From IMG/VR virus record IMGVR_UViG_2718218355_000004: a stretch of DNA of 54,006 nucleotides; one strand, written 5' to 3'. Shown one piece after another: positions 5,093 to 45,013 of this stretch. Source of the stretch: a virus. Taxonomy: Duplodnaviria; Heunggongvirae; Uroviricota; Caudoviricetes. Position 1 is the stretch's first letter, and the number at the start of each line of letters is the position of its first letter. The notes beneath the pieces are model-generated. The model made no database searches and was not told where the DNA came from. It worked only from the letters and a program-made list of their open reading frames with translations. A program made the translations under genes and the position numbers.

Positions 5093-5103
5093 ATTCCCCC
5101 CAC

Positions 5104-5130
5104 AAAAAAGCCCGCCTGAACCGGCGGGCT
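5104..5130 (-). terminator. Rho-independent terminator downstream of lom
   Basis: Minus-strand hairpin AGCCCGCC-loop-GGCGGGCT followed by TTTTTT. Confidence 0.5.
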
Positions 5131-5156
5131 GTCATAACACTGTGTTACCTGGCTAA

Positions 5157-5756
5157 TCAGAATTTATAACCGACACCAACGATGAAACTGTTGGTACGCC
5201 AGTCACCGCTGCCGGAGCCTTCATAAGCGACGTCAACGGCCACGGATTCGGTCGGGTTAAACTGCACGCCAGCCCCCCACGCCAGAGACGTGTTGCTGTG
5301 GCGACCGTCATCACTTCCGGTCAGCACATCGTGCTTTTTCCCCTTGTTGTCAGTTACGCGGAGATAATCCCCGGAGAAAGTCGACACACGGCTGTAAGCC
5401 ACACCCGCCATCGCATACGCGCTGAACCATTCATTCACGCGCACAGACGGCCCCGCCATTACGCTGAACCAGCGGTTACGAACGGAATCTTCATGCCAGC
5501 GGGTATCGCTGTAACGGGTCAGCTGGCGATTCTTGTCTCCTGCATAGCTGAATGACGTCACCAGCCCCAGTGTGTCCGTAAACTCATAACGGTATTTCAC
5601 GTTAATCCCGTTCAGATCATCACTGCCGGGGACGTTCGTCGAGGCATGAAGATACCCCGCGCTCAGCGTGGACTGATGTTCAGACGCCCATGCAGGCGCA
5701 CCGGATACGGCCAGACAAATGGCTGCGGACAAAATTGCTGCACAAACTTTACGCAT
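5157..5756 (-). CDS. lom: Outer membrane protein Lom (Ail/Lom/PagC family)
   Basis: 199 aa with N-terminal signal peptide and beta-barrel ending in aromatic C-terminus (GYKF); located between J and stf as lambda lom is. Confidence 0.85.
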   Translation of the reverse strand: MRKVCAAILSAAICLAVSGAPAWASEHQSTLSAGYLHASTNVPGSDDLNGINVKYRYEFTDTLGLVTSFSYAGDKNRQLTRYSDTRWHEDSVRNRWFSVMAGPSVRVNEWFSAYAMAGVAYSRVSTFSGDYLRVTDNKGKKHDVLTGSDDGRHSNTSLAWGAGVQFNPTESVAVDVAYEGSGSGDWRTNSFIVGVGYKF

Positions 5757-5777
5757 AATTACCTCTCGCTTTTCTGC

Positions 5778-5803
5778 AATAAAAAAGGCGTCATTCCTGA
5801 CGC
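5778..5803 (-). terminator. Rho-independent terminator between J and lom
   Basis: Minus-strand hairpin GGCGTCA-GGAA-TGACGCC followed by TTTTTTATT. Confidence 0.5.
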
Positions 5804-5826
5804 CCTTTATTGGGGTTATAAATATT

Positions 5827-27740: not shown

Positions 27741-29198
27741 TTAGGAGCGCCAAAAAAAACCTGAAAACAATATAATAACAGGATAAATTTCAAGGCGACC
27801 AAGAATCATAGCTATGCACATTAAACATTTTGCAATGTCATTAAGCACTCCGAATGACGATGCAGTAGCCCCAAAACCTAATCCCATATTATTAATACAT
27901 GCAGCCACTGTTGCAAATGATGTAAGAAAATCATATCCCATACCATTTAACACCAGTATAAAAAACACCGTGAAGAGAGTATAAAGAAAAAAGAAACTCC
28001 ATACAGACCTCATTACACGATCTGTAACTATCTTCCCTCCTACATTTACACTCAACAACGCTCTGGGATGAGAAAGCTGATTTATCTCGTGTTTGCTTTG
28101 TTTGAAAAGTATAAGAAATCGAAGTGACTTAATTCCACCACAAGTTGAACCTATACATCCCCCAAAGAAACTTGACAACAGCAAAAACACTATCGTGTGC
28201 GTGGGCCAACTTGCATAATCTTGCGTAGCTAAACCATTATCAGTGAGCATGGAGCTGGCAAGAAAAAACGAATGAATAAAACTTCCATGCAAGTCATACA
28301 TACCTATATGCCAGACCTGGAAAGAGGTAACAATGATCACCCCTAAGGCTATTAACAGAAAGAAACGAAGTTCAATATCTCTGATTAAAGGTTTTATCGT
28401 TTTCCTGCTAATAACAATATACCAAAGAGTGAAGTTGAAAGCCGATAGCAGGGAAAAAGAACCAGCCACCAGCTCAACCAAATAGTTATTAAAATATCCG
28501 ATACTCTCGCTATGAGTTGAGAAACCACCAAGCGAAACTGTGGAAATCCCGTGACAAATAGCATCAAACAAAGGCATTCCTGCAAGTCTATAACAGACAA
28601 TACAAGCAATACCTAATAAAGAATAAGTTATCCACAGTGTCCGTGACGTATCGGCCAGGCGGGGAGTGAGTTTGTCATCCTTAAATGGCCCCGGCATTTC
28701 TGACTGATAAAGCTTTGCACCACCAATACCCAATAATGGCAATACAGCAACCGCCAGAACAATAACTCCTAAACCACCTATAAAATTTAACTGTGACCGA
28801 TAGTACAAATATGCCCGAGGTAATGAACTAACATCATCAATTACAGTTGCTCCTGTTGTTGTTATTCCAGAAACCCCTTCAAACAGAGCATCAATGAACG
28901 TTAAATTAAGTTCTGAGTCAATCCATAAAGGGAATGCACTAATAACAGAAAACAAAATCCAAAACATTACAATTATAATAAACCCATCACGGGTACGTAA
29001 TTGAATGCCAGATTTCTTAGTTGTATACCACGCTCCGCCACCAATGCAAAAAAATATAACGAAAGTTATAAAGAAAACGAACAGGCTTTTTTCTTTATAA
29101 AACAATGCTACAACCATTGGTGGCAACATTGAAAGACTATAGAGCCAAACCAGGAACCCACACATATGAGTAACAACTCTTACATGAGATGTATTCAT
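27741..29198 (-). CDS. trkG: Trk-system K+ uptake protein TrkG (TrkH/TrkG family)
   Basis: Polytopic membrane protein; start set to ATG at MNTSHVRV; visibly AT-rich relative to neighbours. Confidence 0.9.
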   Translation of the reverse strand: MNTSHVRVVTHMCGFLVWLYSLSMLPPMVVALFYKEKSLFVFFITFVIFFCIGGGAWYTTKKSGIQLRTRDGFIIIVMFWILFSVISAFPLWIDSELNLTFIDALFEGVSGITTTGATVIDDVSSLPRAYLYYRSQLNFIGGLGVIVLAVAVLPLLGIGGAKLYQSEMPGPFKDDKLTPRLADTSRTLWITYSLLGIACIVCYRLAGMPLFDAICHGISTVSLGGFSTHSESIGYFNNYLVELVAGSFSLLSAFNFTLWYIVISRKTIKPLIRDIELRFFLLIALGVIIVTSFQVWHIGMYDLHGSFIHSFFLASSMLTDNGLATQDYASWPTHTIVFLLLSSFFGGCIGSTCGGIKSLRFLILFKQSKHEINQLSHPRALLSVNVGGKIVTDRVMRSVWSFFFLYTLFTVFFILVLNGMGYDFLTSFATVAACINNMGLGFGATASSFGVLNDIAKCLMCIAMILGRLEIYPVIILFSGFFWRS

Positions 29199-29335
29199 AT
29201 CTAAATATTCTTTCAATTATAACCACCTTGCTGCAATATTATGATTATACTGTATAAAATTTAACTCCTCTTAGATCTTACTTCACTGTTCCTTATGAAA
29301 CAATCATCAAAATGAATCATATTGTAGTTAAGATT

Positions 29336-30760: not shown

Positions 30761-31156
30761 CTAACCTCGCATGTCAAAGCCAGATTTCTGAAAATCTCTG
30801 TAGACTTCCGGATTGTTGAAGGCCGGAAATTTGGCTTTATGAGCTGCGGACTTTATCGCTTCGCAATAGGCTTTATCACCGTTACTGGTAGATATTTTTA
30901 ACGCCGTGCCATCCTGAGAGAATTCCATATGCAACCTGCATTTTTTCCCTTTCCAGTTATGCGGCTCATCAAGTTTGGCATTAATTGCAGCTCTGATTCC
31001 CCGCGCTTGCGCCCCCCATTCATCCTGATCATCCCAGCGTCCTGAACTGCAACTACCTGTAGCAGTAGTTTTGTGGCAATCTGAAGGGTGTAAAGGTGTG
31101 CATCCCGCAACAAAACCGACCCAAAAAGTCAACATAACGATTTTCTTTAATCCCAC
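30761..31156 (-). CDS. Lipoprotein with TolA C-terminal domain (domain III)-like region, paralogue 2
   Basis: 131 aa; GTG start with GAGGAG SD; signal peptide plus lipobox VAGC; C-terminal region shares the spaced GKKC-L / DG / GD-C / EVY-F pattern with the neighbouring paralogue. Confidence 0.55.
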   Translation of the reverse strand: MGLKKIVMLTFWVGFVAGCTPLHPSDCHKTTATGSCSSGRWDDQDEWGAQARGIRAAINAKLDEPHNWKGKKCRLHMEFSQDGTALKISTSNGDKAYCEAIKSAAHKAKFPAFNNPEVYRDFQKSGFDMRG

Positions 31157-31306
31157 TTCTTGCTCCTCAATCCATTAAAATCTCAGCAATAGTAGTTGTT
31201 ACGTCCGCCACTGGCTCAGAGCTGACTATCCGCTAAATTTAGCTCAGTGCCGTAGCTGTGTCAGAACAAACCTAAGCCGAAACCGTTTATTACAAAACAA
31301 TAAATA

Positions 31307-31735
31307 TCAGGGTTTAAAATCCAGCACCCCATTTTGAAATACTTTATATACTTCCGGCGAAGGGGGGGCAGGTATATCAGCATTCTTTATCGCATTCATC
31401 GCTTCACGACATAAATCGAGGTCTCCACTTTCTCTTTTAACCTCCAGTAGAAGGCCATTCGGGGCCATATGCATTCTCAGTGTACACTCTTTTCCTGAAT
31501 ACTTACTCGCATCCCCGAACTGTTTTTCGATGGCGCTCTTGATTTGATGGGCATACAGACGGATATCCTCACTAACATCAGAAGTACGTTCAGATGAACT
31601 CACATACTGTGTCTCTATTGCTTTATCGGAGTAATATGATGTACGGTCATGATAATTTGTCGATACAGCATCAGTGCACCCGATAATAATCCCACTAATA
31701 ATCAACGTAAGAATTGATGCGCTACGAAAACCCAT
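31307..31735 (-). CDS. Lipoprotein with TolA C-terminal domain (domain III)-like region, paralogue 1
   Basis: 142 aa; signal peptide plus lipobox IIGC; C-terminal 85 aa (QIKSAIEKQF...GKECTLRMHMAPNGLLLEV...IPAPPSPEVYKVFQNGVLDFKP) closely resembles my recollection of the TolA C-terminus. Confidence 0.6.
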   Translation of the reverse strand: MGFRSASILTLIISGIIIGCTDAVSTNYHDRTSYYSDKAIETQYVSSSERTSDVSEDIRLYAHQIKSAIEKQFGDASKYSGKECTLRMHMAPNGLLLEVKRESGDLDLCREAMNAIKNADIPAPPSPEVYKVFQNGVLDFKP

Positions 31736-32352: not shown

Positions 32353-32600
32353 GGTCAATACAAAGGATGCTTCGTCTTTATTATAGTAATCTGAGGCGTC
32401 GGGTGTCTTGTATCAGACAACATATTGTCCCGCTAAACAGCGAATTACAAACCACCCTGCAATGATCTCTCATCTCATTTTATATGAGTTGACGACATCA
32501 GGATAACGCTAGACTGGCCCCCTGAATCTCCAGACAACCAATATCACTTAAATAAGTGATAGTCTTAATACTAGTTTTTAGACTAGTCATTGGAGAGCAG

Positions 32601-32966
32601 ATGATTGATGTCTTAGGACCGGAGAAACGCAGACGGCGTACTACACAGGAAAAGATCGCTATTGTTCAGCAGAGTTTTGAACCGGGAATGACGGTCTCCC
32701 TTGTTGCCCGGCAACACGGTGTGGCAGCCAGCCAGTTATTTCTCTGGCGCAAGCAATACCAGGAGGGAAGTCTTACTGCTGTGGCCGCAGGAGAGCAGGT
32801 CGTTCCTGCCTCTGAACTTGCTGCTGCCATGAAGCAGATTAAAGAACTCCAGCGCCTGCTCGGCAAAAAAACGATGGAAAATGAACTCCTTAAAGAAGCC
32901 GTTGAATACGGGCGTGCAAAAAAGTGGATAGCGCACGCGCCCTTATTGCCCGGGGATGGGGAGTAA
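32601..32966 (+). CDS. insC: IS2 transposase OrfA (InsC)
   Basis: 121 aa from ATG at [13 protein letters not shown]; HTH transposase N-terminal domain. Confidence 0.9.
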
Positions 32967-33829
32967 GCTTAGTCAGCCGTTGTCTCCGGGTGTCGCGTGC
33001 GCAGTTGCACGTAATTCTCAGACGAACCGATGACTGGAAAGATGGTCGCCGCAGCCGTCACTCAGATGATACGGATGTGCTTCTCCGTATACACCATGTT
33101 ATCGGAGAGCTGCCCACGTATGGTTATCGTCGGGTATGGGCGCTGCTTCGCAGACAGGCCGAACTTGATGGTATGCCTGCGATCAATGCCAAACGTGTTT
33201 ACCGGATCATGCGCCAGAATGCGCTGTTGCTTGAGCGAAAAACCGCTGTACCGCCATCGAAACGGGCACATACTGGCAAAGTGGCCGTGAAAGAAAGCAA
33301 TCAACGATGGTGCTCTGACGGGTTCGAGTTCCGCTGTGATAACGGAGAAAAACTGCGAGTCACGTTCGCGCTGGACTGCTGTGACCGTGAGGCACTGCAC
33401 TGGGCAGTCACTACGGGCGGCTTCGACAGTGAAACAGTACAGGACGTAATGCTGGGAGCGGTGGAACGCCGCTTCGGCAACGAGCTTCCGGCGTCTCCAG
33501 TAGAGTGGCTGACGGATAATGGTTCATGCTACCGGGCTAATGAAACACGGCAGTTTGCCCGGATGTTGGGGCTTGAACCGAAGAACACGGCGGTGCGGAG
33601 TCCGGAGAGTAACGGCATAGCAGAGAGCTTCGTGAAAACGATAAAGCGTGACTACATCAGTATCATGCCTAAACCAGACGGGTTAACGGCAGCAAAGAAC
33701 CTTGCAGAGGCGTTCGAGCATTATAACGAATGGCATCCGCATAGTGCACTGGGTTATCGCTCGCCACGGGAATATCTGCGGCAGCAGGCCAGTAATGGGT
33801 TAAGTGATAACAGGTGTCTGGAAATATAG
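32924..33829 (+). CDS. insD: IS2 transposase OrfB (InsD), DDE catalytic domain
   Basis: 301 aa overlapping insC in the -1 frame (typical IS3-family OrfAB arrangement). Confidence 0.9.
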
Positions 33830-34658: not shown

Positions 34659-34945
34659 AAATGACCTTTCTTTCTCCAGATTTCTTGTGTGCGAAAAACC
34701 CCTTCAGCATGCATCAGGCGCAATTCTTCTTTGGTGTAATCGCTGGTTTTTACCCGCCCGTCGATTAGATCGTGGCATGAGCTACAGGCTATCGCCGCCT
34801 GCATATCGTGTGGTTTTGTCGCTGTTCCGCACGTCCCCGCCAGCCTGTAATGCGCCAGCACAGAGGTTTCGGGATTGTGATTGCAGTAGCCAGGGATTCT
34901 GATCTGGCACATCTGGCCTTTAGCCGCTTTACGTAAATTCACCAT
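34655..34945 (-). CDS. YbcO-like putative metal-binding nuclease (DUF1364)
   Basis: 96 aa with Cys/His pattern CQIRIPGYCN...NPETSVLAH...ACSSCHDLIDGR, as I recall for nin-region YbcO proteins. Confidence 0.6.
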   Translation of the reverse strand: MVNLRKAAKGQMCQIRIPGYCNHNPETSVLAHYRLAGTCGTATKPHDMQAAIACSSCHDLIDGRVKTSDYTKEELRLMHAEGVFRTQEIWRKKGHL

Positions 34946-35544
34946 TACGCAAACTCCAGTAGTTGTGCGGCCACATTTTCAACTTCCTCCTGAGAGGAGA
35001 ATTTACGGAACAGAATCCAGTTCCACAGCACATTCAGTACAGATTTATAAACCTGCTGAAACTCGACTTCGTCCATATTCGCAAAAGCGATGGATTTTGC
35101 CCGACGCCCACGGCTACCGTCCGGATAAATATGCTCGGTGTAAAATCCGGCCTGAATGGTTACCCACTCGCGGAAAGCCTCAAACGACTTTAGCAACGCC
35201 GTATCCCGGGTTCTACGAGTCGCAACGGTGTTAAGGTATTGCTCTGCGGCATCACTCAGGGCTGGCGTGTGTTCCCGACCAACTGATTCGCACAGGTAAT
35301 CAACGAAACCAGACAGCAGTTCTCGTTCGCGAGGCGTGATCGCCCCACCGACCGGAGTCCAGTAATCGAATCCCAGTTGCAGGAGTTTGAAAAAACGCTT
35401 GTGGAATGCGTAGTTACGCACACGCTTAAAGTCTGCGTGTATCCACTCACCTATTTTGATTTGATGCAGAAAATCGCAACTCTCCGGCGTCGCCGGGAGA
35501 AGTAAACCAGAAGAAGTTTGTTTGACCAGTTGTATATGCGCCAT
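34945..35544 (-). CDS. nin-region phage protein (YbcN/DUF1367-like)
   Basis: 199 aa translationally coupled to the ybcO-like gene; family name uncertain. Confidence 0.4.
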   Translation of the reverse strand: MAHIQLVKQTSSGLLLPATPESCDFLHQIKIGEWIHADFKRVRNYAFHKRFFKLLQLGFDYWTPVGGAITPRERELLSGFVDYLCESVGREHTPALSDAAEQYLNTVATRRTRDTALLKSFEAFREWVTIQAGFYTEHIYPDGSRGRRAKSIAFANMDEVEFQQVYKSVLNVLWNWILFRKFSSQEEVENVAAQLLEFA

Positions 35545-35817
35545 TTCTCAATCTCTCGATGGCGCAGTGCAGCAGATGCCAGTTGTTCAGGCTGACGTAT
35601 AAAGTATAAATAAACTGGTTCCAGTGTAAAGCCCCCACCTTAATGGAATAAAAACCAAACAACAGATTGCTGGGATACAAACAACGCTTATTATTAAAAG
35701 CGGTTAAACAAATTAAATTTTAATGTTATGCAAATTTGTCAGATCACCATAATATCTCATTTGAAAACCGCTGAAATAACAATCCTATCAGGATTAATCA
35801 TATTAAGGTGAGTAAAT

Positions 35818-35904
35818 ATGGAAAACAACAAATCTGCACATTACGCTCCTTTTTTATCTGTAATACTTTTTGTTTTTTGCTGTGTATGGGCATTATTTTT
35901 ATAA
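35818..35904 (+). CDS. Candidate small hydrophobic peptide (28 aa)
   Basis: ATG preceded by AAGGTGAG SD; translation MENNKSAHYAPFLSVILFVFCCVWALFL has one predicted TM helix; not in supplied ORF track. Confidence 0.3.
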   Translation: MENNKSAHYAPFLSVILFVFCCVWALFL

Positions 35905-35980
35905 AAATATTCACAGATAAAATAAACTCGCCGAATCAGGTTAAGTGTGGGTGCGTTGAGGATGCCTGACACATCAGAGG

Positions 35981-36002
35981 CGGCGAGGGATTTCTCCCTC
36001 GC
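35981..36002. terminator. Perfect 9-bp-stem hairpin 3' of hok
   Basis: GGCGAGGGA-TTTC-TCCCTCGCC immediately downstream of the hok stop; no strong T-tract, so it may be an mRNA 3' stabilising structure rather than a terminator. Confidence 0.35.
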
Positions 36003-36012
36003 CTAGTCACTC

Positions 36013-36168
36013 TTACTCCTCAGGTTCGTAAGCTGTGAAGACAGCGACCTCCGTCTGACCGGTTCGGATTCGCACCTCGCAGAGGTCTTTCCTCGTTACC
36101 AGTGCCGTCACTATGACGGTTAAACAGATGACAATCAGTGCGACTAACATCGCCTTTTGCTGCTTCAT
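36013..36168 (-). CDS. hok: Hok/Gef-family type I toxin (51 aa)
   Basis: MKQQKAMLVALIVICLTVIVTALVTRKDLCEVRIRTGQTEVAVFTAYEPEE, near-identical to my recollection of HokD/RelF; AAGGAG SD 7 nt upstream; the longer in-frame ORF in the track is an artefactual extension. Confidence 0.85.
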   Translation of the reverse strand: MKQQKAMLVALIVICLTVIVTALVTRKDLCEVRIRTGQTEVAVFTAYEPEE

Positions 36169-36379
36169 AGCCTGCTTCTCCTTGCCTTCCGGCGCGTAAG
36201 AGGCTAACCTACATGTGCAAAGCATGAAATTGGCCTCAGATTAATGTTAAGCGTCTTGCCGGACGCGTAATGTTATCTGGGGCTTTTCTCTATCTGCCTT
36301 TGGTGTTCATGCCTGAGGCAGATAGCCTCAAGCACCCGCAGCAATTCTACTTAACTCCCGTCACCTCGCCAATATAAAA

Positions 36380-36469
36380 TCAATCAGAAAGGCGATCCAT
36401 AAGAACAACAGCAAGACAATAAATTGCCATTACAGCCGCAATAGCTAGCGCACATTTGAGAACCAGCAC
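36380..36469 (-). CDS. Candidate small hydrophobic peptide (29 aa)
   Basis: GTG start 5 nt after a perfect AGGAGG SD; translation MLVLKCALAIAAVMAIYCLAVVLMDRLSD; different frame from the 74-aa Cys-rich track ORF. Confidence 0.3.
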   Translation of the reverse strand: MLVLKCALAIAAVMAIYCLAVVLMDRLSD

Positions 36470-36888
36470 GACAACCTCCTGTATTGGACGTACACCAGTT
36501 CTGATAAATATGAGGCTGTCTCATCATTGATTCAATATAACTATTGGGTATAGTTTCTGTGATTTTGTTCTGTAGAAATGGAACACAACAACCAGTCACC
36601 ACCAGCACTTCTTTAAATACGCCAAGTCCGACGCAAGCTAACCTTCTAGTCCGCTTTGAGCGAGGAGCGGACCAAACCCGGCCAACTGACTCTTAAAGGG
36701 GCCGCAGGAATTTTTCGTCTGAACTTTCGAAGCTCCTCTCCCTGAAGACAGAAAACTTCTGTGTGCTGTGGGAATATTGAATCTTTGCCTTAGATATAAA
36801 TAATTTTATCCCGCCTGAAGTTTACATTATTTTATTTATCTGTTTTTCTAAATCAGACTGCACTCCTTACTTAAATCAGGAGCCAGTC

Positions 36889-38088
36889 ATGCCATTTGTT
36901 ATTTATGTGTTTACTATCAGTGCCTTTGCGCTCGGACTCGCGGAATTTGTCCCCATTGGGCTGACAGACGTTATGGCTCAGGGGTTGTGTGTGGGTGTGG
37001 AGCAGACCGGGGCAGCGGTTACAACCTATGCACTGGGGGCAACGTTCGCGGCACCCGTACTGTCTGCGCTGACAGCAAGCTGGAGCCGGAAAAATGTAAT
37101 GCTTACAACTGCCGTTGTGTTTACTGCCGGTAGTCTGGCGGCCGCGTTTGCAGCCACATTACCTCAGCTCCTGTTAGCGCGGTTCATTGCTGGTCTGGGA
37201 CACGGCCTGTTTCTGGCTGCGGCATCCAGTACCGCAGCTCGTCTTGCTGGACCGGGTAAAGCAGGCAGAGCGGTGGCTGTGGTATTTGGTGGCTTTACTC
37301 TGGCGATGGCAATCGGCGTACCGCTGAGTACATGGTTGGGGGGGGTGGTCTCATGGCGTCCAGTTCTCGGCGCTATTGCCGCTTTTGGCGCGTTCGGATT
37401 CCTTGGACTGTTGTTCGGTATGAAAGATCCCGTACGCAGCGTGCCCGGTGAACATAGTGACTCAGCAATGCAGAATATCGGCATGCTGTTTAACCGTAAG
37501 TTGCTGGCCGGCGCGCTGGTTACGGTGCTGGCGTATGCAGGCTCGTTTACGGATTACACCTTTATCGCACCTATTCTGACGCAGGTGACAGGGGTTACCG
37601 GAGCAACGGTGAGTCTGTTTATGCTGGTTTACGGTATTACAGCTGCGGTAGGTAATATTCTTGGTGGGAAACTTACCGACAGCATGGGGGTTAATCGTGC
37701 CAATATACTCATCATTAGCGGCATTGTTGTTGTCGTGCTTGGTATGTGGCTGCTGTCATCCTCACCGGTGAGCATGGGCATTCTGGTTGCGCTGCTGGGT
37801 ATGGTGACATTTGCCGCAGTGCCGGCACTGCAGGCCCGTCTGATTGGTGTCGCTGAGCAACATGCTCCTCATGCGCATGGTGTTGCTGCCGGCCTGAATA
37901 TTGCGGGCTTCAACTCAGGTATAGCGCTGGGATCAGTACTGGGCAGCATTACTATAAGCCACGCCGGTATCGTGTATACCGGTATCAGCGGTGCGATTGT
38001 TTCTCTGCTCGGCCTGCTGTTGCTGCTTGCACAAATCCGTCGCAGCCACAGTCGTAAATTTCAACAGGTTAAAATCGTAGGCCAGTAA
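36889..38088 (+). CDS. MFS transporter (sugar/drug efflux-like)
   Basis: 399 aa with about 12 predicted TM helices and an MFS-type loop 2-3 motif. Confidence 0.8.
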   Translation: MPFVIYVFTISAFALGLAEFVPIGLTDVMAQGLCVGVEQTGAAVTTYALGATFAAPVLSALTASWSRKNVMLTTAVVFTAGSLAAAFAATLPQLLLARFIAGLGHGLFLAAASSTAARLAGPGKAGRAVAVVFGGFTLAMAIGVPLSTWLGGVVSWRPVLGAIAAFGAFGFLGLLFGMKDPVRSVPGEHSDSAMQNIGMLFNRKLLAGALVTVLAYAGSFTDYTFIAPILTQVTGVTGATVSLFMLVYGITAAVGNILGGKLTDSMGVNRANILIISGIVVVVLGMWLLSSSPVSMGILVALLGMVTFAAVPALQARLIGVAEQHAPHAHGVAAGLNIAGFNSGIALGSVLGSITISHAGIVYTGISGAIVSLLGLLLLLAQIRRSHSRKFQQVKIVGQ

Positions 38089-38099
38089 AGGGAGGTTAT

Positions 38100-38792
38100 A
38101 TGCTTACCCGTGAAAATATGCTTAATGGCACATTTGTCAGGGTGCATGAAGCGCTGCTCCCGGCGAATATGCTCTGGGACGCTGAAAAAATACGCGCATC
38201 AATGAACTCTACTCTGGAGGAGCGCCCGACGGGTGCTCCTGTCTGGATATTTGCCTACGGGTCATTGATGTGGAATCCCGTGCTGGCGATTGAAGAAATG
38301 CAACGGGCCCGTCTGAAAGGATGGCAGCGCAGTTTCTGCATTCGTTTGATATCCGGACGAGCGACTCCTGATGTCCCCGGCAGGATGTTATCGCTCGACG
38401 AAGGTGGAATTACCGAAGGTATTGCGTTCAGACTGCCGGAATCGACTCTTATTAATGAGCTGGAAATTGTCTGGACGCGCGAGATGATAACCGGTCTTTA
38501 CCGTCCGGTCTGGGCAGACGTTTCGCTAGGAAACGGTGAGGAAATTCAGGCGCTGGCTTTCGTATCAGACAGACTGCATCCGCATTATGAACAGGACAAT
38601 CTTACAGCGACCGTAGCGTTGAGCATCGCATCTGCCCGTGGAGACATTGGCACGAATGCAGATTATGTATGGAAACTGCAGGCCACTCTGGGTGCGTTGG
38701 GAATACGGGATGATTACGTGAGTGAACTGGCCCTTGCTCTGCATGAGGCTCCCTGTAACGATAAACTTCATCAGCGAGGCGCTTCACTATGA
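38100..38792 (+). CDS. ChaC-family gamma-glutamylcyclotransferase-like protein
   Basis: 230 aa with the ChaC signature IFAYGSLMWNP and alignment to ChaC throughout, from memory. Confidence 0.8.
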   Translation: MLTRENMLNGTFVRVHEALLPANMLWDAEKIRASMNSTLEERPTGAPVWIFAYGSLMWNPVLAIEEMQRARLKGWQRSFCIRLISGRATPDVPGRMLSLDEGGITEGIAFRLPESTLINELEIVWTREMITGLYRPVWADVSLGNGEEIQALAFVSDRLHPHYEQDNLTATVALSIASARGDIGTNADYVWKLQATLGALGIRDDYVSELALALHEAPCNDKLHQRGASL

Positions 38793-39670
38793 GCCATCTG
38801 AGCCATCTGCGAACGTTTCTTGAGGCCTATCGCTCTGGCTCCTTTTCAAAGGCGGCAGAACTACTGGGCATCACTCAGCCCGCGGCGTCACAGCATATCC
38901 AGTCTCTTGAGACTCTGGTTGGTAAGCGTCTGTTTATCAGGCAGGCCAGAGGCGTGACGGCAACCGAAGCTGCGGATGAGCTTGCCCGCTCAGTTTCACC
39001 CTTCATTGATGGTCTGGAAGAAAAGCTGTCCTCTTTCCGGTCAGGCTCTGTACGCGGGGGAACAATTAATCTGGCAGGACCGCCAGATTTTATTCATTCC
39101 CGGCTTGGGACAGTAATGGCTCCACTAATGAAGGAGGGGTATCGCCTACGCTTTCATACCGGCAATAAGCAACGTATTTATTCCCTTTTGCATGACGGGA
39201 GCGCCGATCTCGCTGTTACCGCATCTATGCCTGATGACCGTCTGTACGGCTATGCACATCTACTGACTGAACGCATGCTCCTTGTTCATGCTCCCGCCAT
39301 GTCAGAGATCATCGGATCAGAACCTGGTGCTGAAACGCTTGCCTCATTACCGCTGATTGCTTATGACGAAGAGTTGCCACTGATTAGAGCGCTCTGGGCC
39401 TCCATGTTTCAGAGAGCCCCTGAGATGCAGGCTACATTCACCATTCCGGATTTACGTATTATCCGCGACTTGGTCTGTGACGGCCACGGGTGGACAGTGC
39501 TGCCGGATTATCACTGTGACAATGACCTGAAAAGTGGTCGCCTGATTTCAGTGACACCTGCAGACCTCGCTCCGACTAATCATCTTTATCTGGTCTGGAA
39601 CAAAAGGACGGCTAATAACAGCCGAACCGCCTATGTTCGGGATTACATTCTTAAAACGTTTCCGCGTTGA
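38789..39670 (+). CDS. LysR-family transcriptional regulator
   Basis: 293 aa; N-terminal LysR HTH (FSKAAELLGITQPAASQHIQSLE) and C-terminal substrate-binding domain; start overlaps the chaC-like stop. Confidence 0.85.
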   Translation: MSHLSHLRTFLEAYRSGSFSKAAELLGITQPAASQHIQSLETLVGKRLFIRQARGVTATEAADELARSVSPFIDGLEEKLSSFRSGSVRGGTINLAGPPDFIHSRLGTVMAPLMKEGYRLRFHTGNKQRIYSLLHDGSADLAVTASMPDDRLYGYAHLLTERMLLVHAPAMSEIIGSEPGAETLASLPLIAYDEELPLIRALWASMFQRAPEMQATFTIPDLRIIRDLVCDGHGWTVLPDYHCDNDLKSGRLISVTPADLAPTNHLYLVWNKRTANNSRTAYVRDYILKTFPR

Positions 39671-39800
39671 TGTTTGAAACGGATGATTGGCGATGCGTAT
39701 CATAAGTTACGTATGTCCGCTTCTGGCACAAAGCAGACGCCCACTCTCACGCGAATGCTTTGCCCTTGACTTGCCAACAACCGTATCGCTTGCTCCGCAA

Positions 39801-41078
39801 CTATGGTTTTTTATTAGAATCTTCGCCACTAAATAAATTATAATAAATTGATTTTATTATATATCTGTCAGAATCTATATGGTCAGCACGAGTAGCATGC
39901 TCTAATGTTTCAAATGCTAGGGTTTGTGCGGCTTCAGCAAAAATTCCAGGCCACCCCTTACTCAGCATCGACAGTCCTTTAAGTACCCTTATCTGAATTT
40001 CCCTCATACTGGCACCATCGCGCGCAACAGGTGAGAAAAAGTCTTCAAGTAGATCGTTATTCTGAAGTGGTGCAACATGTACAGAAGGATATTTCACTTC
40101 TATTTCATCAGATTTATTCTGCGCGTAAGCGGAAAGTATACGTACACCTCTGCCAATGACATCAATGGCGGTTCCAGGATCGTTCACTGCGGGGGAAAGG
40201 GCTCGGCAGGCTATTTCGGCCATGACGCTAAGACAAAATCGGGGGTCCTGAGCAAATGAACGTACATCCGAGACAATAATCGTCTCAAGTAAATCGGTGC
40301 TGATTGATGACTCCTGGCCCTGACTCAGGTACAAAACTGGCGTGGACGGATGTATGAAACTGCCCGGCTGCGCCACGAGGTATACATGACGGGGATCATT
40401 GGTCAGCAGCTTGCTGAGTTTCACCATATCAACATATTCAACATAGCCAATCTTTTTCGGATAAACTGCAACCGTTCCTTTCGGCTGTTCATTGTTCTCA
40501 AGCCATGGATATCCGCCGAGACAGGGATTTCTTGCTCTCGCAATAAATGTTTCGATGGCCGCCTGTTCTACTTTTGCCGTTGTCTCACCAACCCTCCCCA
40601 GAGAGGTCAAATGCTGTATCCAGCGAAGCAATGTGATGAGGATTAAGGCAATGACAACCAGTGTTACAATGAATAAAATGACTCTCCCCCTTTCTCCATA
40701 AGCTCCCATATTGAGGGCAATAATCCCTACCAGACTGAAGAGAAAAGAACCGATGAAGGTGGCCAGTACATTTTGTGTGGTGACGTCTTCAACAACTAAA
40801 CGAGTAGCTCTGGGAGTCACATTAGTAGTGGCTGAACCGTAGGCTGTGACCATGATGCTCAGCGAAAATGTGGTCACTGCCAGCATACTCGATGCCAGTA
40901 TGTTCAGAATGTTATCGACTGCTTCCGCACCAACTTTCACGGAAACCGACTCAGGTATCATTGATTTAAAAAGAATTGATAAAAGGGCCGTTATTATTGC
41001 GACAATTGCGAATAACGTTGCCCTGAACCATAGTTTTTTAAATGTCTGCTTCAGCATCCATTTCCAGCGTGAAATCAT
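39801..41078 (-). CDS. Membrane protein, DUF2254-like
   Basis: About 425 aa with N-terminal multi-TM region and soluble C-terminal domain; start chosen at internal ATG with GAGGGA SD; family by recollection. Confidence 0.5.
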   Translation of the reverse strand: MISRWKWMLKQTFKKLWFRATLFAIVAIITALLSILFKSMIPESVSVKVGAEAVDNILNILASSMLAVTTFSLSIMVTAYGSATTNVTPRATRLVVEDVTTQNVLATFIGSFLFSLVGIIALNMGAYGERGRVILFIVTLVVIALILITLLRWIQHLTSLGRVGETTAKVEQAAIETFIARARNPCLGGYPWLENNEQPKGTVAVYPKKIGYVEYVDMVKLSKLLTNDPRHVYLVAQPGSFIHPSTPVLYLSQGQESSISTDLLETIIVSDVRSFAQDPRFCLSVMAEIACRALSPAVNDPGTAIDVIGRGVRILSAYAQNKSDEIEVKYPSVHVAPLQNNDLLEDFFSPVARDGASMREIQIRVLKGLSMLSKGWPGIFAEAAQTLAFETLEHATRADHIDSDRYIIKSIYYNLFSGEDSNKKP

Positions 41079-41113
41079 TCTGCATTCCCTCATATTGCAG
41101 CCGGGATAAATAA

Positions 41114-41134
41114 ATGCCGCCTCTGTGGCGGCAT
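41114..41134 (-). terminator. Hairpin downstream of the BCCT transporter gene
   Basis: ATGCCGCC-ACAGA-GGCGGCAT (minus strand) followed by an A/T-rich tract. Confidence 0.35.
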
Positions 41135-41141
41135 GTTGCTG

Positions 41142-43145
41142 TTAACGAACCAGATGCAGGAAGTGCAGGTGTTTTTCGTACTGGTCCAGTATGTCATTAA
41201 TCAGCTGTTCCTGATTCCAGCCCATTACATCATAATTTTGGCCGCCCTCTTTGAGATAGACTTCAGCGCGATAATATCGATGTTGTTCACTCTGCTGCTC
41301 ATCATTATCCAGCGCAGCGAGCGCGAAGGTCGGTGAGTTATACCCGCGAAGCCTCACTTCATATATATAATTCAGCTCGTTGCCCAAATCGACTTCAAGG
41401 CGAATACGATCCTCGGCGGCGTCACTGATGTGGCTTATCGTTCCCTGCTTGTTAAGTTCCTCCTGAACCAGCGTCATGGCGGGTTGGATAATGTCGTCCA
41501 TAAAACGTTTCACAAGAGAGCGCTTCGGCAAATACGCGATATTGCGTAACCTTCTCTGCCAGGGAATTGGGTTACGTGCAGCCGTAGGAGCAATAGTCGC
41601 CATGCTAAGGCTTTCACGCTTGGTCAAATCCCGACGCAGGGCTTTTAACAGTCCGTATATGGATATTAATAAGATAACTGAGAAGGGCAATGCACTCGCT
41701 ATCGTTACGGTTTGCAACGCACTCAGCCCCCCTGCGATCAGCAGGGCAATAGCAACAACGCCCATGAGCGATGCCCAGAAAATTCGCTGCCAGACGGGCG
41801 TGTTTGCCACCCCACCTGATGCCAGAGTATCCACAACCATTGCCCCCGAATCAGCAGACGTTACAAAGAAGACGATGACCATCGCCATTGCAATGAATGA
41901 CAGCACGGAAGAGAACGGGAAATGCTCCAGGAAATTAAACAGGGCAAGCGCAACATCCTGCTGAACGGTATTGGCGAGGTCAGTGGCGCCCTGGTTCATG
42001 ATGAGATAGATGGCGCTGTTTCCAAACACCGTCATCCACATGAGCGTAAAGCCGGCGGGAACAAACAACACGCCAGTCACGAACTCACGAATTGTCCTGC
42101 CGCGGGAAACGCGTGCAATGAACATACCTACAAACGGCGACCATGAAAGCCACCATCCCCAGTATAATAATGTCCAGCCCCCCAGCCAGTTGCTCGACTT
42201 GGGTTCATACGCGTAAAGGTTGAACGTTTTACTCACCAGTTCCGACAGATAACCACCCGTATTTTCCACAAATGACTTCAGCAGAAGCACAGTGGGACCC
42301 AGGCACAAGACCAGCGCCAGGAGCAACACCGCCAGGCCCAGATTAAGCTCAGACAGGATGCGTATTCCCTTGTCCAGGCCGGACACCACCGAAATCGTCG
42401 CTAACCCCGTGATGACCACGATCAAAATGACCTGTACCGTTTCATTGATGGGCACGCCGAAAAGATGGTTCAAACCGGCATTCACCTGCAATACACCGTA
42501 ACCCAGCGATGTTGCAACGCCAAAGACAGTGCCTATCACGGCGAAGATATCAACCGCGTGGCCTATAGGCCCGTAAATGCGATCGCCGATAATGGGATAG
42601 AGCGCAGAACGCAGCGTTAAAGGCAGACCGTGACGGTAACTGAAAAAGGCCAGAATCAGCGCCACGATGGCATAAATTGCCCATGCGTGCAGACCCCAGT
42701 GGAAGAACGTCAGGCGCATGGCTTCCTTCGCTGCCGCAACGGTCTCTGGAGTGCCGACAGGTGGCGAAAGATAATGCATCACAGGTTCGGCAACGCCAAA
42801 GAACATCAGGCCGATCCCCATCCCTGCCGAAAAAAGCATCGCGAACCAGGAGTGGTAGCTGAAATCAGGCTGCGCATGGTCTGGGCCCAGCTTTATATCA
42901 CCGTAACGTGAGAGTCCAAGGAACGTGACGCTCAGTAAAATCAGGGCCACAGCAAGTATGTAGAACCAGCTGGCATTCGTGAAGATTTGTTGCTGAAGTA
43001 GTTTAAAATTTTTGTCGGCGACATCCGGGAATACGGCGGCAAAGGCGACAAGAAGGAAAATTAGCAAAGCAGATGTAAAGAATACCGCTTTGTTAATCTG
43101 GCTTGTAGACTTCTTTGGGGTTGTATCATTTTCACTCATAATCAT
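41142..43145 (-). CDS. BCCT-family transporter, BetT-like (choline/betaine/carnitine)
   Basis: 667 aa; BCCT transmembrane core with conserved Trp-rich motif (WTLLYWGWWLSWSPFVGMFIARVSRGRTIREF) and long C-terminal cytoplasmic extension like BetT. Confidence 0.85.
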   Translation of the reverse strand: MIMSENDTTPKKSTSQINKAVFFTSALLIFLLVAFAAVFPDVADKNFKLLQQQIFTNASWFYILAVALILLSVTFLGLSRYGDIKLGPDHAQPDFSYHSWFAMLFSAGMGIGLMFFGVAEPVMHYLSPPVGTPETVAAAKEAMRLTFFHWGLHAWAIYAIVALILAFFSYRHGLPLTLRSALYPIIGDRIYGPIGHAVDIFAVIGTVFGVATSLGYGVLQVNAGLNHLFGVPINETVQVILIVVITGLATISVVSGLDKGIRILSELNLGLAVLLLALVLCLGPTVLLLKSFVENTGGYLSELVSKTFNLYAYEPKSSNWLGGWTLLYWGWWLSWSPFVGMFIARVSRGRTIREFVTGVLFVPAGFTLMWMTVFGNSAIYLIMNQGATDLANTVQQDVALALFNFLEHFPFSSVLSFIAMAMVIVFFVTSADSGAMVVDTLASGGVANTPVWQRIFWASLMGVVAIALLIAGGLSALQTVTIASALPFSVILLISIYGLLKALRRDLTKRESLSMATIAPTAARNPIPWQRRLRNIAYLPKRSLVKRFMDDIIQPAMTLVQEELNKQGTISHISDAAEDRIRLEVDLGNELNYIYEVRLRGYNSPTFALAALDNDEQQSEQHRYYRAEVYLKEGGQNYDVMGWNQEQLINDILDQYEKHLHFLHLVR

Positions 43146-43479
43146 TTATTCCATTAATTAAATCCGCACTGGATAGAAGGTACTACCTCTCACAGAGTAG
43201 CAAAGTTCAACTGGCTATGCGGGGTTAATCGGAATGCATGGTGGAATGAGTGCCGATACAAATCATCCTATATTCTAAGGAGTTTTAAGTTACTCAGCCT
43301 GCCAATTACTGGGGCATTTAATTTGTATGATCTGTATCAAAGCTGGGATATAAGTTAAGTGAAGTATATTAGGCACGAATTACCAGCGTCTGCTCTTGGC
43401 ACAAAGCGGACAACCACGCTAGCTCTACCCTGTGCCACAAAATGTCAATTTGCATCTGAACTAATGCACTTTAATCTCG

Positions 43480-43902
43480 TCACTTCAATAAATACCGAAC
43501 ATCCCCCTGATAAAACGACAATATGCGCTGCATAACTTCGCTCTTCCGGCACTCGCGACAGATTATGTTTAGGCGACTGTCGTAGCGACGTATTTCTCCG
43601 TCAGGTAATGACCAGATAAGGTCCGGATCAACCACAACCGGTTTCTTCAGCTTTGCCCTCGATAATTTTTTGCGGGCATTTTGCCAGTCTTTACGAGCCT
43701 GTTCAGACGGGAATAACCCGTAGCCAGAATTGTATACATCGCCACTGGCAACCAGCTCTCTGGCCAGAACGCTCATCAGATATCTTGTTGCCCCAGTTTT
43801 AGCTTCCAGTTGTCGTAACGTCTCGCGCCCACTCTGGCGTACGAGTTCAAGAACCTGCCCTTTAATTTTTTCCCGCTCTTCTTGTGTAAAAACTTTTGCC
43901 AC
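43480..43902 (-). CDS. Hypothetical protein (140 aa), possible winged-helix
   Basis: GTG start with AGGAGG SD; sits immediately after the replication initiator gene, where lambdoid phages usually encode a helicase loader, but shows no ATPase motifs. Confidence 0.4.
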   Translation of the reverse strand: MAKVFTQEEREKIKGQVLELVRQSGRETLRQLEAKTGATRYLMSVLARELVASGDVYNSGYGLFPSEQARKDWQNARKKLSRAKLKKPVVVDPDLIWSLPDGEIRRYDSRLNIICRECRKSEVMQRILSFYQGDVRYLLK

Positions 43903-43942
43903 AAGCCCTCCTGAAAATTACCTCATGACCAGAAATTAACAC

Positions 43943-45013
43943 TTACCCCCTGAAGCCCGGCGGAATTTCGTTATCCGGTTCAGAAATATGATTCACACAA
44001 CGCTGGTTGTTCGTGCCGCTTACCGGGAGCAACCAGGGGTTCTCAAAATTCCGGTCCGGTCCAAAAAACGTCGTCGCTCGCTGAACAAATTCCGTTCCCG
44101 TTTTCCCGGTAGCCGCCAAGTATCTTGCGTAACGCCTCACGCCATCCAGCATGGCCTCTGGTGGCACCCCCTCGCGTAATCTGGCCTTCCAGGCACTGAA
44201 AGCGGATTTCTTCGGGTTTGCCCCAGCACGCAACGGGTACTCCCGCCAGACCTGTTCGAACACATCCGGATAATCCACTCGTCCCACAGACTGCCCGGTG
44301 TTTTCCGGGACTACCCGATCGGCTTCCCGCTGAATGGCGGAATCGGCTTCAGGCTGCTGCAGTTGGTGTGATTGCTCCGCCCTTGCGGTCATCACCTGCT
44401 GCACAGCGCCCGAATCGGCTTTCAGCGCATACGCTGAATCGGCTTCCGGTGTCGTGCCTGCTGGCTGACCAAGATTGACGGTCTGAACATCCCCTGCCTG
44501 GTTCGTGGCGTTTTTTACGCCATGGACCATAGTGTTTTGATCTTCTTGATCTGTATCTTTATCTGTATCTTTATCTGTCGTGACTCGTCGTGACATGTGC
44601 GTGACATTTCGTGACGCGCCGTGACAATCGCCATTTTGTTCCCGCTTTCTTTCCCTCTCTCGCTGCGCCCTCTTGCGCTCTGCAGGAGATTTTGCGGTTT
44701 GCGAAATATTGCCGTTGTCCTCTTTAAGCACCTGGCGTTTTTCCCATCCAGTGATTAAATCACCATCAAGTACCCGCCCCTGCATCGTCTGCAAAATTGA
44801 ATCAATTACCTCTTCTGTCACGTCGAGCGCACTTGCCAAATCTTCTGTCGTGACATCAATGTGACCTCGCGTGACATTTCGTGACGCGCTCACCAGGAGG
44901 TGGATATACACTGCCATCACTGTTGCAATTGGCTGTCCTGACACCCTGGCAATTGTTCGCCACTTAGGGTCATTTGGCATGTCATGCCATAATCTGAGCC
45001 AGGCGTTAGCCAT
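43943..45013 (-). CDS. Replication initiator / replisome organizer protein
   Basis: N-terminal MANAWLRLWHDMPNDPKW resembles replisome-organizer N-domains; gene contains two iteron arrays; lies directly after the cro-like ydaS/ydaT pair. Confidence 0.6.
   Translation of the reverse strand: MANAWLRLWHDMPNDPKWRTIARVSGQPIATVMAVYIHLLVSASRNVTRGHIDVTTEDLASALDVTEEVIDSILQTMQGRVLDGDLITGWEKRQVLKEDNGNISQTAKSPAERKRAQRERERKREQNGDCHGASRNVTHMSRRVTTDKDTDKDTDQEDQNTMVHGVKNATNQAGDVQTVNLGQPAGTTPEADSAYALKADSGAVQQVMTARAEQSHQLQQPEADSAIQREADRVVPENTGQSVGRVDYPDVFEQVWREYPLRAGANPKKSAFSAWKARLREGVPPEAMLDGVRRYARYLAATGKTGTEFVQRATTFFGPDRNFENPWLLPVSGTNNQRCVNHISEPDNEIPPGFRG
44578..44624. repeat. Iteron array 1 (5 x CGTGAC at 10-11 bp phasing), putative ori
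   Basis: CGTGAC at 44578, 44588, 44599, 44609, 44619, preceded by AT-rich TATCTTTATCTG repeats at 44548-44577. Confidence 0.6.
44859..44895. repeat. Iteron array 2 (4 x (C/T)GTGAC at 10-11 bp phasing)
   Basis: Copies at 44859, 44870, 44880, 44890; the two arrays encode the repeated peptide SRNVT..VTT in the initiator. Confidence 0.55.

Follow-up and report, generated by a model that had tools for sequence, protein, structure and literature searches.

An MFS-ChaC-LysR Operon in a Rac-Like Prophage of Escherichia coli Lies on a Mobile Cassette Bounded by Inverted 24-bp Palindromes

The DNA analyzed here is a stretch of 54,006 nucleotides (nt), IMG/VR record IMGVR_UViG_2718218355_000004 (Caudoviricetes), which is referred to below as the window and whose positions are counted from its first letter. 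Its subject is an operon of three genes on the plus strand, encoding a DHA1/exporter-like MFS transporter of 399 amino acids (36889-38088; PF07690, E = 2.8e-42), a ChaC-family gamma-glutamylcyclotransferase of 230 amino acids (38100-38792; PF04752, E = 3e-35), and a LysR-type regulator of 293 amino acids (38789-39670; HTH_1, 4.4e-21, and LysR_substrate, 3.6e-26). A first reading of the window (the original prediction) had placed three co-oriented genes at precisely these coordinates, and all three were found to be intact. It had also described the genes as translationally coupled, which holds for ChaC and LysR, whose reading frames overlap via ATGA, but not for MFS and ChaC, which do not overlap and are separated by 11 nt containing a strong Shine-Dalgarno sequence (AGGGAGG). 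The same trio is annotated by RefSeq in hundreds of genomes, and comparison with a 92.9%-identical copy on a Klebsiella plasmid gave dN/dS values of 0.105 for MFS, 0.174 for ChaC, and 0.086 for LysR. Both observations indicate that the three open reading frames (ORFs) are not chance ORFs and are, to judge from these ratios, functional genes under purifying selection. No phage function could be assigned to them, as had been anticipated, since MFS and LysR match PHROGs of unknown function and ChaC matches no PHROG. The GC content of the cassette (52.2%, versus 46 to 48% in the flanks) is atypical only to a mild degree.

The operon had been described as lying between hok and the replication module, a placement that is correct but incomplete, because LysR is separated from the ren-like and replication genes by two further cargo genes. 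These encode a DUF2254 membrane protein (39801-41093, minus strand; PF10011, 1.6e-92) and a BCCT transporter (41142-43145, minus strand; PF02028, 7e-199), the latter belonging to the BetT (choline) subfamily according to NCBIfam (752 bits, above the cut-off of 695). On one side, the slot that holds all five genes is bordered by a ren-like gene (DUF977, "LygF"; 43480-43902, minus strand; PHROG 142, Ren-like exclusion protein, 4.7e-45), an assignment that agrees with RefSeq and phage annotation. On the other side, it is bordered by a hok toxin ORF with its sok/hok leader (36013-36337, minus strand; PF01848, 1.6e-23; sok RF01794, 116 bits against a gathering threshold of 59), beyond which the NinB/Orf-like gene (DUF1367; 34945-35544, minus strand; PF07105, 6e-98; PHROG 319, NinB/Orf, 6.9e-70) marks the start of the nin region. 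Since the PHROGs identify DUF977 as ren-like and DUF1367 as NinB/Orf, the cargo sits exactly at the boundary between ren and nin. The early-right genes of the phage are transcribed on the minus strand, so that the three-gene operon, on the plus strand, is oriented antisense to them.

Bases 36649 to 39738 were shown to be a 3.09-kb mobile cargo cassette bounded by inverted L-type and R-type 24-bp palindromes. A repeat search found three copies of the imperfect palindrome, GTCYGCTYYTSGCWCAAAGCRGAC, in the window, where 0.00 were expected by chance, and no further copies were present there. The left copy (GTCCGCTCCTCGCTCAAAGCGGAC; 36649-36672, minus strand), at the left end of the three-gene cassette, is of the L-type, defined by CGCT at positions 11 to 14. 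The other two copies are of the R-type, defined by GGCA at the same positions; the middle one (GTCCGCTTCTGGCACAAAGCAGAC; 39715-39738, plus strand) forms both the right end of the three-gene cassette and the left end of the DUF2254-BCCT module, and the right one (GTCTGCTCTTGGCACAAAGCGGAC; 43388-43411, plus strand) is the boundary to the phage backbone. The same cassette was found in three kinds of replicon, namely, Rac-like prophage, P2-like prophage, and IncF plasmid, and in each case homology ends in the repeats. Homology to the Klebsiella plasmid (locus L003) covers exactly 36648-39739, with a palindrome at each end of the plasmid copy; homology to a P2-like locus (L093) starts at 36648, its outer flank being different; homology to an island of strain E24377A (L002) starts at 39719, within the middle palindrome; and 43389 is where other Rac-like phages and prophages again become homologous. 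The sequence across the left cassette end consists of AAAGCGGAC joined to TAGAAGG in Rac, AAAGCAGAC joined to TGTCAGA in the P2-like prophage, and ATAGCGGAC joined to TGCGCTC in the plasmid. Moreover, E. coli M3 has the same phage flanks and both outer palindromes around a different segment of about 950 nt, the same site is occupied by QueH in a strain of sequence type ST131, and it is nearly empty in E. coli B derivatives.

When IMG/VR was scanned with an exact pattern, at least 120 loci were found, and the counts given for the slot in IMG/VR refer throughout to the matches listed from that scan. When palindromes were recounted in these loci with up to 5 mismatches allowed, at least 217 copies were obtained, compared to a chance expectation that we estimate at about 0.1. 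The 5' (cargo-side) flank was variable, falling into 134 clusters with no more than 11 members in the largest, and the 3' (backbone-side) flank fell into 72 clusters, the largest having 46, 32, 18, and 16 members; the right palindrome of the window belongs to the commonest backbone-flank class (46/215). At least two copies were present in 75 of the 120 loci, nearly always as (-)...(+) pairs with the conserved flanks facing outward. The 93 segments between palindromes reduced to 56 distinct cassettes of 0.4 to 9.5 kb (0.4 to 5.8 kb for inverted pairs), and the inverted (-,+) arrangement was found in 47 of them. One L-type and one R-type palindrome bounded 44 of these 47 inverted cassettes, the remaining three had one end of neither type, and no L/L or R/R combination occurred (0/47). 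Direct pairs were mostly R/R (4 of 8 types) and included the DUF2254-BCCT module (39801-43145), which is bounded by two R-type palindromes in direct orientation. That pair of genes was also found at 94% identity in the tRNA-Leu island of E24377A, which is riddled with insertion sequence (IS) elements. Its prophage copies have at least six different cassettes as left-hand partners, one of them the ChaC cassette, and about 960 other E. coli records match its DUF2254 end at 90 to 95%.

Some cassettes stand in series, with back-to-back R and L copies 16 to 18 nt apart at each junction (loci L025 at 1321-1386, L030 at 2348-2411 and 3158-3223, L044, L078, L088, L106, L116, and L117), a layout that resembles an array of independent cassettes. 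About 4 of the 217 listed copies have a hybrid center, CGCA, that is half L and half R (for example, L106 at 5613-5636); such centers would be expected from rare exchange between L and R at the central GC dinucleotide, and point mutation is an equally possible origin.

The site of exchange was mapped with 347 pairs of loci that share a backbone flank and carry different cargo and with nine reciprocal pairs that share cargo on different backbones. In the different-cargo pairs, identity stayed at 0.28, the random level, until 3 nt before the palindrome; it was 0.66, 0.41, and 0.44 at palindrome positions 4, 8, and 9, rose to at least 0.96 at positions 10 to 24, and was about 0.9 beyond. In the nine same-cargo pairs, the cargo flank and positions 1 to 7 were almost wholly identical, and positions 17 and 21 and the outer flank differed. 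Because the two sets of pairs give reciprocal identity patterns, these alignments show that cassettes have evidently been exchanged at the palindromes, with the deduced crossover inside the repeat, between positions 9 and 17. Confinement of the crossover to this interval is compatible with the action of a recombinase without being proof of one, and the exchange is accordingly described here as putatively site specific. The cassette can serve as a clean natural marker for exchange that has taken place, at a defined site of 24 bp, between two unrelated phage families and a conjugative plasmid. Since the crossover can be mapped to the center of this site, the entry of morons and defense genes into fixed phage slots, a question of long standing, becomes directly testable.

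Phage P2 supplies the closest known parallel. In the P2-like locus of IMG/VR, the cassette is 99.9% identical from window position 36648 onward and adjoins P2-type tail sheath, tube, and tape-measure genes. In P2 itself, gene G is followed after 60 nt by an R-type palindrome, and a degenerate L-type copy stands just before TGTCAGATTTGATAGC and the pF promoter; the fun(Z) gene of P2 is bounded by the same palindrome family as the window cassette, and the P2 flank with TGTCAGATTTGATAGC is the second large backbone class in IMG/VR. In the summary that a review gives of Nilsson et al. 2004 (PMC8987985), inverted repeats enable site-specific exchange of fun; the principle of inverted-repeat-mediated exchange at this locus was already proposed in 2004. 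What is shared with the Z/fun locus is the palindrome family and, in one IMG/VR prophage, the identical MFS-ChaC-LysR cassette at the P2-type position. The window differs from it in that the slot is lambdoid (Rac-like) and lies between ren-like and hok/ninB, two modules use a common palindrome, and the cargo is of a metabolic or transport type instead of an exclusion gene. A keyword search of the literature found no specific description of this lambdoid slot. Phage lambda has no such palindrome and carries the tR2 terminator at the equivalent ren-ninB position; the deposited phages Tritos (L214, 1732-3508), Evi (L215), and mEp460_ev081 (L216) have the same L/R-bounded slot with 1.4 to 1.9 kb of cargo. 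In Tritos, the slot encodes a 444-amino-acid FRG-domain protein that matches the defense candidate PDC-S15 (1e-98); in mEp460_ev081 it encodes a hypothetical protein of about 450 amino acids, and in Evi an acetyltransferase.

The enzyme of the operon is, as had been proposed, a member of the ChaC family. The PF04752 match scores 122.3 bits (cut-off, 21) and spans residues 48 to 212 of 230, identity to ChaC of E. coli K-12 is 45% over 216 residues, and the YGSLMWNP motif and Glu128 (in the REM motif) are invariant among eight aligned sequences, which comprise the cassette protein, E. coli ChaC, and six relatives. Human ChaC2 structures match the cassette protein at 5e-8. When aligned to human ChaC2 by HMMER, the cassette protein has its Glu displaced by 2 residues relative to E83, and the equivalence of the catalytic Glu rests on the motif for this reason. 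On these grounds, the cassette enzyme is taken to be a bona fide ChaC paralogue. It shares with E. coli ChaC, named glutathione-specific gamma-glutamylcyclotransferase in RefSeq, an equal length and both motifs; unlike native chaC, which adjoins chaA and chaB, the cassette copy is a second, horizontally acquired gene in an operon with a transporter and a regulator.

Among species-representative genomes, the nearest relatives of the cassette ChaC were found in Serratia (62% identity), Erwinia (60%), and Paraburkholderia or Cupriavidus (43 to 51%). None of the relatives in 80 other species had an MFS gene as a neighbor, and MFS-ChaC-LysR synteny was absent from the species-representative genomes even at relaxed thresholds, a comparison in which ORF clustering is noisy because high-GC genomes yield spurious ORFs. 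In six Burkholderiales loci (Cupriavidus, Paraburkholderia, and Caballeronia; L141 at 1320-7764, L134, L137, L140, L145, and L148), a ChaC gene whose product is 43 to 50% identical is followed by genes for an HlyD adaptor and an AcrB-type RND efflux pump, and in several of them (e.g., L134, L137, and L141) a divergent LysR gene precedes ChaC. We know of no published description of this recurring association of ChaC, RND efflux, and LysR in Burkholderiales. The gene order is Grx2, hydrolase, ChaC, LysR, and luciferase-like oxidoreductase in the Erwinia locus and LysR, SnoaL, FMN reductase, and ChaC in the Serratia locus.

The top NCBIfam matches of the MFS protein were all to efflux families, namely, Cmx/CmrA (207 bits versus an equivalog cut-off of 400), SotB-type (158 versus 401), AraJ (139 versus 499), and NepI, and its only relative among structures in the PDB was the sugar efflux pump SotB (6KKI). 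Since all equivalog cut-offs were missed, the transporter would best be described as exporter-like, without membership in any named exporter family. The best NCBIfam resemblance of the LysR protein was weak (ArgP/LysG subfamily, 88.5 bits versus a cut-off of 197). The MFS and LysR genes also occur as a pair without ChaC, in a 75%-identical version on Klebsiella plasmids, which suggests a regulator-plus-exporter core that ChaC may have joined later.

The region upstream of the MFS gene contains a sigma-70-like promoter candidate, TTGAAT-16-AATAAT (36777-36804, plus strand), that matches the consensus at 9 of 12 positions and lies in a region retained down to the 65 to 75% identical versions of the cassette; promoter-like sites were not enriched over shuffled sequence (13 versus 11.2). 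Overlapping this site, 80 to 94 nt 5' of the MFS ATG, is an AT-rich dyad, TATAAATAATTTTAT (36795-36809, no strand assigned), which is a candidate LysR operator and is mostly kept in all four aligned cassette versions (the window and the Klebsiella loci L003, L005, and L004); it differs from the canonical T-N11-A box. The LysR gene is the last in the operon and codirectional, not divergent from its targets, and no T-tract terminator was found 3' of it. This layout is atypical for a LysR-type regulator and does not exclude membership in the family.

We infer from these features that the operon has a LysR-activated role in which ChaC acts together with export by MFS. Its own promoter would drive it antisense to the phage early-right operon, and its own LysR protein would control it positively. 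ChaC would cleave glutathione or a closely related gamma-glutamyl peptide to 5-oxoproline and a dipeptide, and the MFS protein would export a small molecule (a toxic inducer, or else a product of the reaction), such that the operon would serve as a self-contained stress or detoxification module and not as an uptake pathway. Lysogenic conversion, as suggested in the original prediction, is plausible, given an operon that runs opposite to phage transcription and that brings along a regulator and a promoter-like site. About 1 in 18 complete E. coli genomes has a second ChaC enzyme, putatively regulated and with its own pump. The operon could, if expressed, affect how lysogens turn over glutathione or how well they tolerate some toxic compound.

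We favor this reading as a whole, that is, a palindrome-bounded cassette that is exchanged and that carries a LysR-activated ChaC/exporter module for stress or detoxification, with a probability of roughly 0.6. Several points weigh against it. With regard to the exchange, no recombinase has been identified for the palindromes, and short-homology recombination, for which RecET is encoded in the prophage, could yield identical breakpoints. Single-stranded folding of the palindromes is weak (-3 to -7 kcal/mol; z-scores, -0.5 to -2.7), and no compensatory changes were seen in the IMG/VR copies (38 C-A mismatches and 2 T-A pairs); for both reasons, a duplex site bound by protein, or a simple short homology, would appear to fit better than a folded hairpin. 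With regard to function, the MFS and LysR proteins score far below every NCBIfam equivalog cut-off, the direction of transport cannot be read from sequence, some DHA1-like MFS proteins are not exporters, and the association of ChaC with efflux comes from relatives that are 43 to 50% identical and that have another type of pump (RND). The function proposed for the operon is itself read from sequence. Furthermore, damaged copies exist in E. coli, the MFS gene being split in ET881 and ECONIH5 and the ChaC gene of YZB902 carrying IS100, and three genomes have an IS1 insertion at the left junction. Selection on the trio would then not be universal in E. coli, and since several copies are disrupted, the trait appears to be dispensable in some lineages.

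The best-surviving alternative concerns the mode of exchange. The palindromes may be short conserved sequences, possibly regulatory or insulating, that are used by general or phage (RecET/Red-type) homologous recombination with no dedicated recombinase, an explanation that we regard as a serious possibility, though not the one we would back. In its favor are the RecE and RecT genes of this prophage, the fact that the 24 bp are the sole homology common to different cassettes and backbones, the lack of a candidate recombinase common to P2-like and Rac-like backbones, and a published precedent (PMC2839356). It fits less well with crossovers confined to the center of the repeat, positions 4, 8, and 9 being unlinked from the backbone and positions 17 to 24 fully linked to it, with the pairing of L and R in 44 of 47 inverted cassettes and of like with like in none, with an 8-8-8 layout that looks like a recombinase core site, and with the review that credits the 2004 P2 study with site-specific recombination (PMC8987985). 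The precedent, the PeSL cassettes of T4-type phages (Arbiol et al. 2010, PMC2839356), shares short repeated motifs that flank gene-sized insertions or replacements; unlike the present palindromes, for which no recombinase is known, PeSLs are promoters and terminators that act by homologous recombination.

A bolder extension, which we consider rather doubtful, is that the L and R palindromes are heterospecific sites of a natural cassette exchange system with a putative recombinase, common to P2-like and Rac-like phages, plasmids, and islands, and that the ChaC operon is one circulating cassette of this system, perhaps, given that its slot-mates are nearly all anti-phage genes, an unrecognized glutathione-based defense or stress module. 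Engineered cassette exchange with heterospecific lox or FRT sites likewise uses two nonidentical sites per cassette and is cited here as an analogy only. We know of no convincing likeness between the palindrome and dif/cer (Xer) sites, hix/gix, integron attC, IS200/IS605 ends, or REP elements. A likeness of the loop, GTGCCAA, to the Rci shufflon core was treated as coincidence, because L-type copies do not contain GTGCCAA. Two further identities were rejected for the palindromes: as LysR operators (they lie 217 and 243 nt 5' of the two operons), because the repeats also flank dozens of unrelated cassettes without LysR, and as intrinsic terminators or folded hairpins, because there is no T tract, folding is weak, C-A mismatches are frequent, and compensatory T-A pairs are almost lacking. 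A search of 35500-44000 with Rfam at permissive thresholds returned sok only and left the palindromes unmatched, and a literature search with the exact palindrome sequence returned one irrelevant paper on fish. The L/R pair is a sequence tag with which more cargo and defense candidates could be harvested from prophages.

The original prediction had paired the enzyme with a dedicated transporter and read the operon as serving uptake and catabolism of a gamma-glutamyl compound. In this model, MFS would import glutathione or another gamma-glutamyl compound, ChaC would degrade it, and LysR would induce the operon with the substrate, to the nutritional benefit of the lysogen. In its favor, catabolic operons classically combine a transporter with a degradative enzyme and a regulator, the present genes are closely packed, and ChaC is a genuine glutathione-degrading family. 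The transporter part of this claim was not borne out, since the protein is nearest to efflux families, its sole solved relative is an efflux pump, none of the ChaC relatives in 80 other species has an MFS neighbor, several instead lie next to RND efflux pumps, and the MFS-LysR pair exists without ChaC. To our knowledge, moreover, the known bacterial glutathione importers are ABC systems. Uptake and catabolism are therefore considered unlikely, and they have less support than the LysR-activated export module. No study of this ChaC operon was found in the literature beyond a passing mention, in a 2019 review, of "chaC" and "LysR regulator" in a prophage of strain CRE1540.

The cassette is present (at least 80% of 36700-39900) in 296 of 5,426 complete E. 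coli genomes, most of these copies having at least 99% identity and full coverage. The Rac-type left junction was found in 285 of the 5,426 genomes and the P2-type junction in none of them, and no match to the cassette was found among 50,697 deposited phage genomes. Beyond E. coli, the cassette occurs at 92.9% identity on one Klebsiella IncF plasmid (that of locus L003), six Klebsiella plasmids carry a version of the trio that is about 65% identical, and others have the 75% version, consisting of MFS and LysR without ChaC; these divergent versions of 65 to 75% identity sit among IS elements and lack palindromes. It is conceivable, if improbable, that the trio has no joint function in E. coli and is a hitchhiking fragment of a Klebsiella or Enterobacterales plasmid operon that decays slowly in a largely defective prophage. 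The setting of the divergent plasmid versions, the disrupted E. coli copies, and the persistence of the cassette in truncated Rac remnants, possibly by linkage only, would agree with such decay. Against it stand dN/dS values of 0.09 to 0.17 in all three genes, the near identity of most of the 296 copies over their full length, and the retention of gene order and of the upstream dyad down to 65% nucleotide identity.

The cargo of the slot in IMG/VR was surveyed as 94 ORFs from distinct cassettes, with two long atypical segments omitted. Known defense genes among them included PD-T7-1 (three ORFs), PD-T7-5, several DRT-type reverse transcriptases, and Tmn; candidate defense genes included PDC-S15, PDC-S35, and PDC-S06; and defense-related domains included AbiGi, HEPN, SIR2, TIR, YobI-ATPase, and Mrr. 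Metabolic-looking cargo included GNAT, SDR, NUDIX+HAD, adenosine deaminase, and Ham1. By these matches, the slot seems to carry mostly anti-phage genes. The operon is a discrete cassette that circulates among Rac-like prophages, a P2-like prophage, and a plasmid via a slot dominated by such genes. The fun locus has been described in a passage of Vassallo et al. 2022 (PMC9519451) as the second hot spot of P2, and a passage of Rousset et al. 2022 (PMC9122126) suggests cos-proximal recombination; flanking palindromes are not described in these passages of the two papers. The defense hot spots of P2, P4, and other prophages share with the present slot a fixed position in the phage genome, a very high turnover of cargo, and enrichment in known and candidate defense systems; unlike them, the window cargo has no defense signature.

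It is quite improbable that the cassette is an unrecognized module of anti-phage defense or interphage competition, for example, one in which LysR triggers glutathione depletion and efflux that abort infection; its presence in the slot would then have the same cause as that of its neighbors. The dominance of defense genes in the slot speaks for it, as does the fun(Z) gene in the homologous P2 slot, which blocks phage T5 according to passages of two sources (PMC9519451 and PMC8987985). However, none of the five window cargo proteins matched PADLOC at E <= 0.001, ChaC is part of no known defense system, and the slot also holds plainly metabolic cargo (NUDIX+HAD, SDR, GNAT, QueH, and BCCT).

The prophage as a whole could be followed in E. 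coli ECCHD184, which has a 100%-identical copy of the cassette inside a continuous Rac-type lambdoid prophage adjoining ttcA. In order, that prophage carries intR, xisR, rcbA, ralR, recT, recE, kilR, sieB, immunity genes, ydaT, a replisome organizer, and DUF977; then BCCT, DUF2254, LysR, ChaC, and MFS; then hokD, DUF1367, DUF1364, and DUF1133 (Q-like); and finally lysis genes, trkG, and head and tail genes. Two further genomes have an equal arrangement in more degraded prophages. The proposal that the cargo lies inside one prophage was thus upheld by three complete genomes, all with lambdoid order from intR to the tail genes at ttcA. A different idea, which the original prediction had itself named as what would refute it, is that two separate prophage remnants flank ordinary chromosomal DNA that includes the operon. 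This idea deserves practically no credence and was excluded in the complete genomes. Nothing speaks for it there save ECONIH5, in which all DNA left of the cassette has been lost to an IS1 deletion, so that the cassette superficially abuts chromosomal genes. Against it, the gene order is that of a single lambdoid genome running from int to tail; the cassette flanks, in other prophages and in Tritos, Evi, and mEp460_ev081, adjoin each other or have other small cargo between them; and the cassette is missing from about 95% of E. coli genomes.

Like the extra DNA of the morons and lysogenic-conversion cassettes of lambdoid phages, the cassette is flanked by conserved phage genes and is missing from closely related phages. 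A further feature that we see as common to morons and to trkG, a classical Rac cargo gene, is transcription independent of the phage program, which for the present operon is predicted. Unlike classical morons, which are defined by a promoter and a terminator, the present cassette is defined by its 24-bp ends and occurs unchanged on other replicons. In the window, the potassium transporter gene trkG is located at 27741-29216 (minus strand) and has a GC content of 37.7% (31.9% at third codon positions, GC3); together with the slot cargo, it would show that this prophage has several independent host-type transporter cargos.

Some minor observations were made in the window and in K-12. The gap between BCCT and DUF2254 holds a GC-rich, perfect 8-bp stem-loop, ATGCCGCC...GGCGGCAT (41114-41134), that is predicted to be terminator-like on both strands, midway in an apparent two-gene operon. 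An IS2-like insertion (32556-33829, plus strand), with transposase ORFs of 136 and 301 amino acids, separates the Q-like DUF1133 gene from the TolA-like and lysis genes; the ECCHD184 prophage, which otherwise matches, seems from the coordinate offset to lack it. Because this insertion may block late-gene expression, the prophage may be noninducible. A weak fourth palindrome-like site, GTCCGCCACTGGCTCAGAGCTGAC (31203-31226, plus strand), has 6 mismatches, against a chance expectation that we put at about 0.04; it adjoins the TolA-like ORFs (30761-31735) and could mark another, degenerate cargo boundary. Finally, the Qin prophage of K-12 contains an R-type palindrome, GGCTGCTCCTGGCACAAAGCGGAC (L211, 5982-6005; record positions 1645981-1646004), between relBE-hokD and ydfV/flxA, and since this copy is 109 nt 5' of relB, the K-12 relBE locus adjoins the same kind of site.

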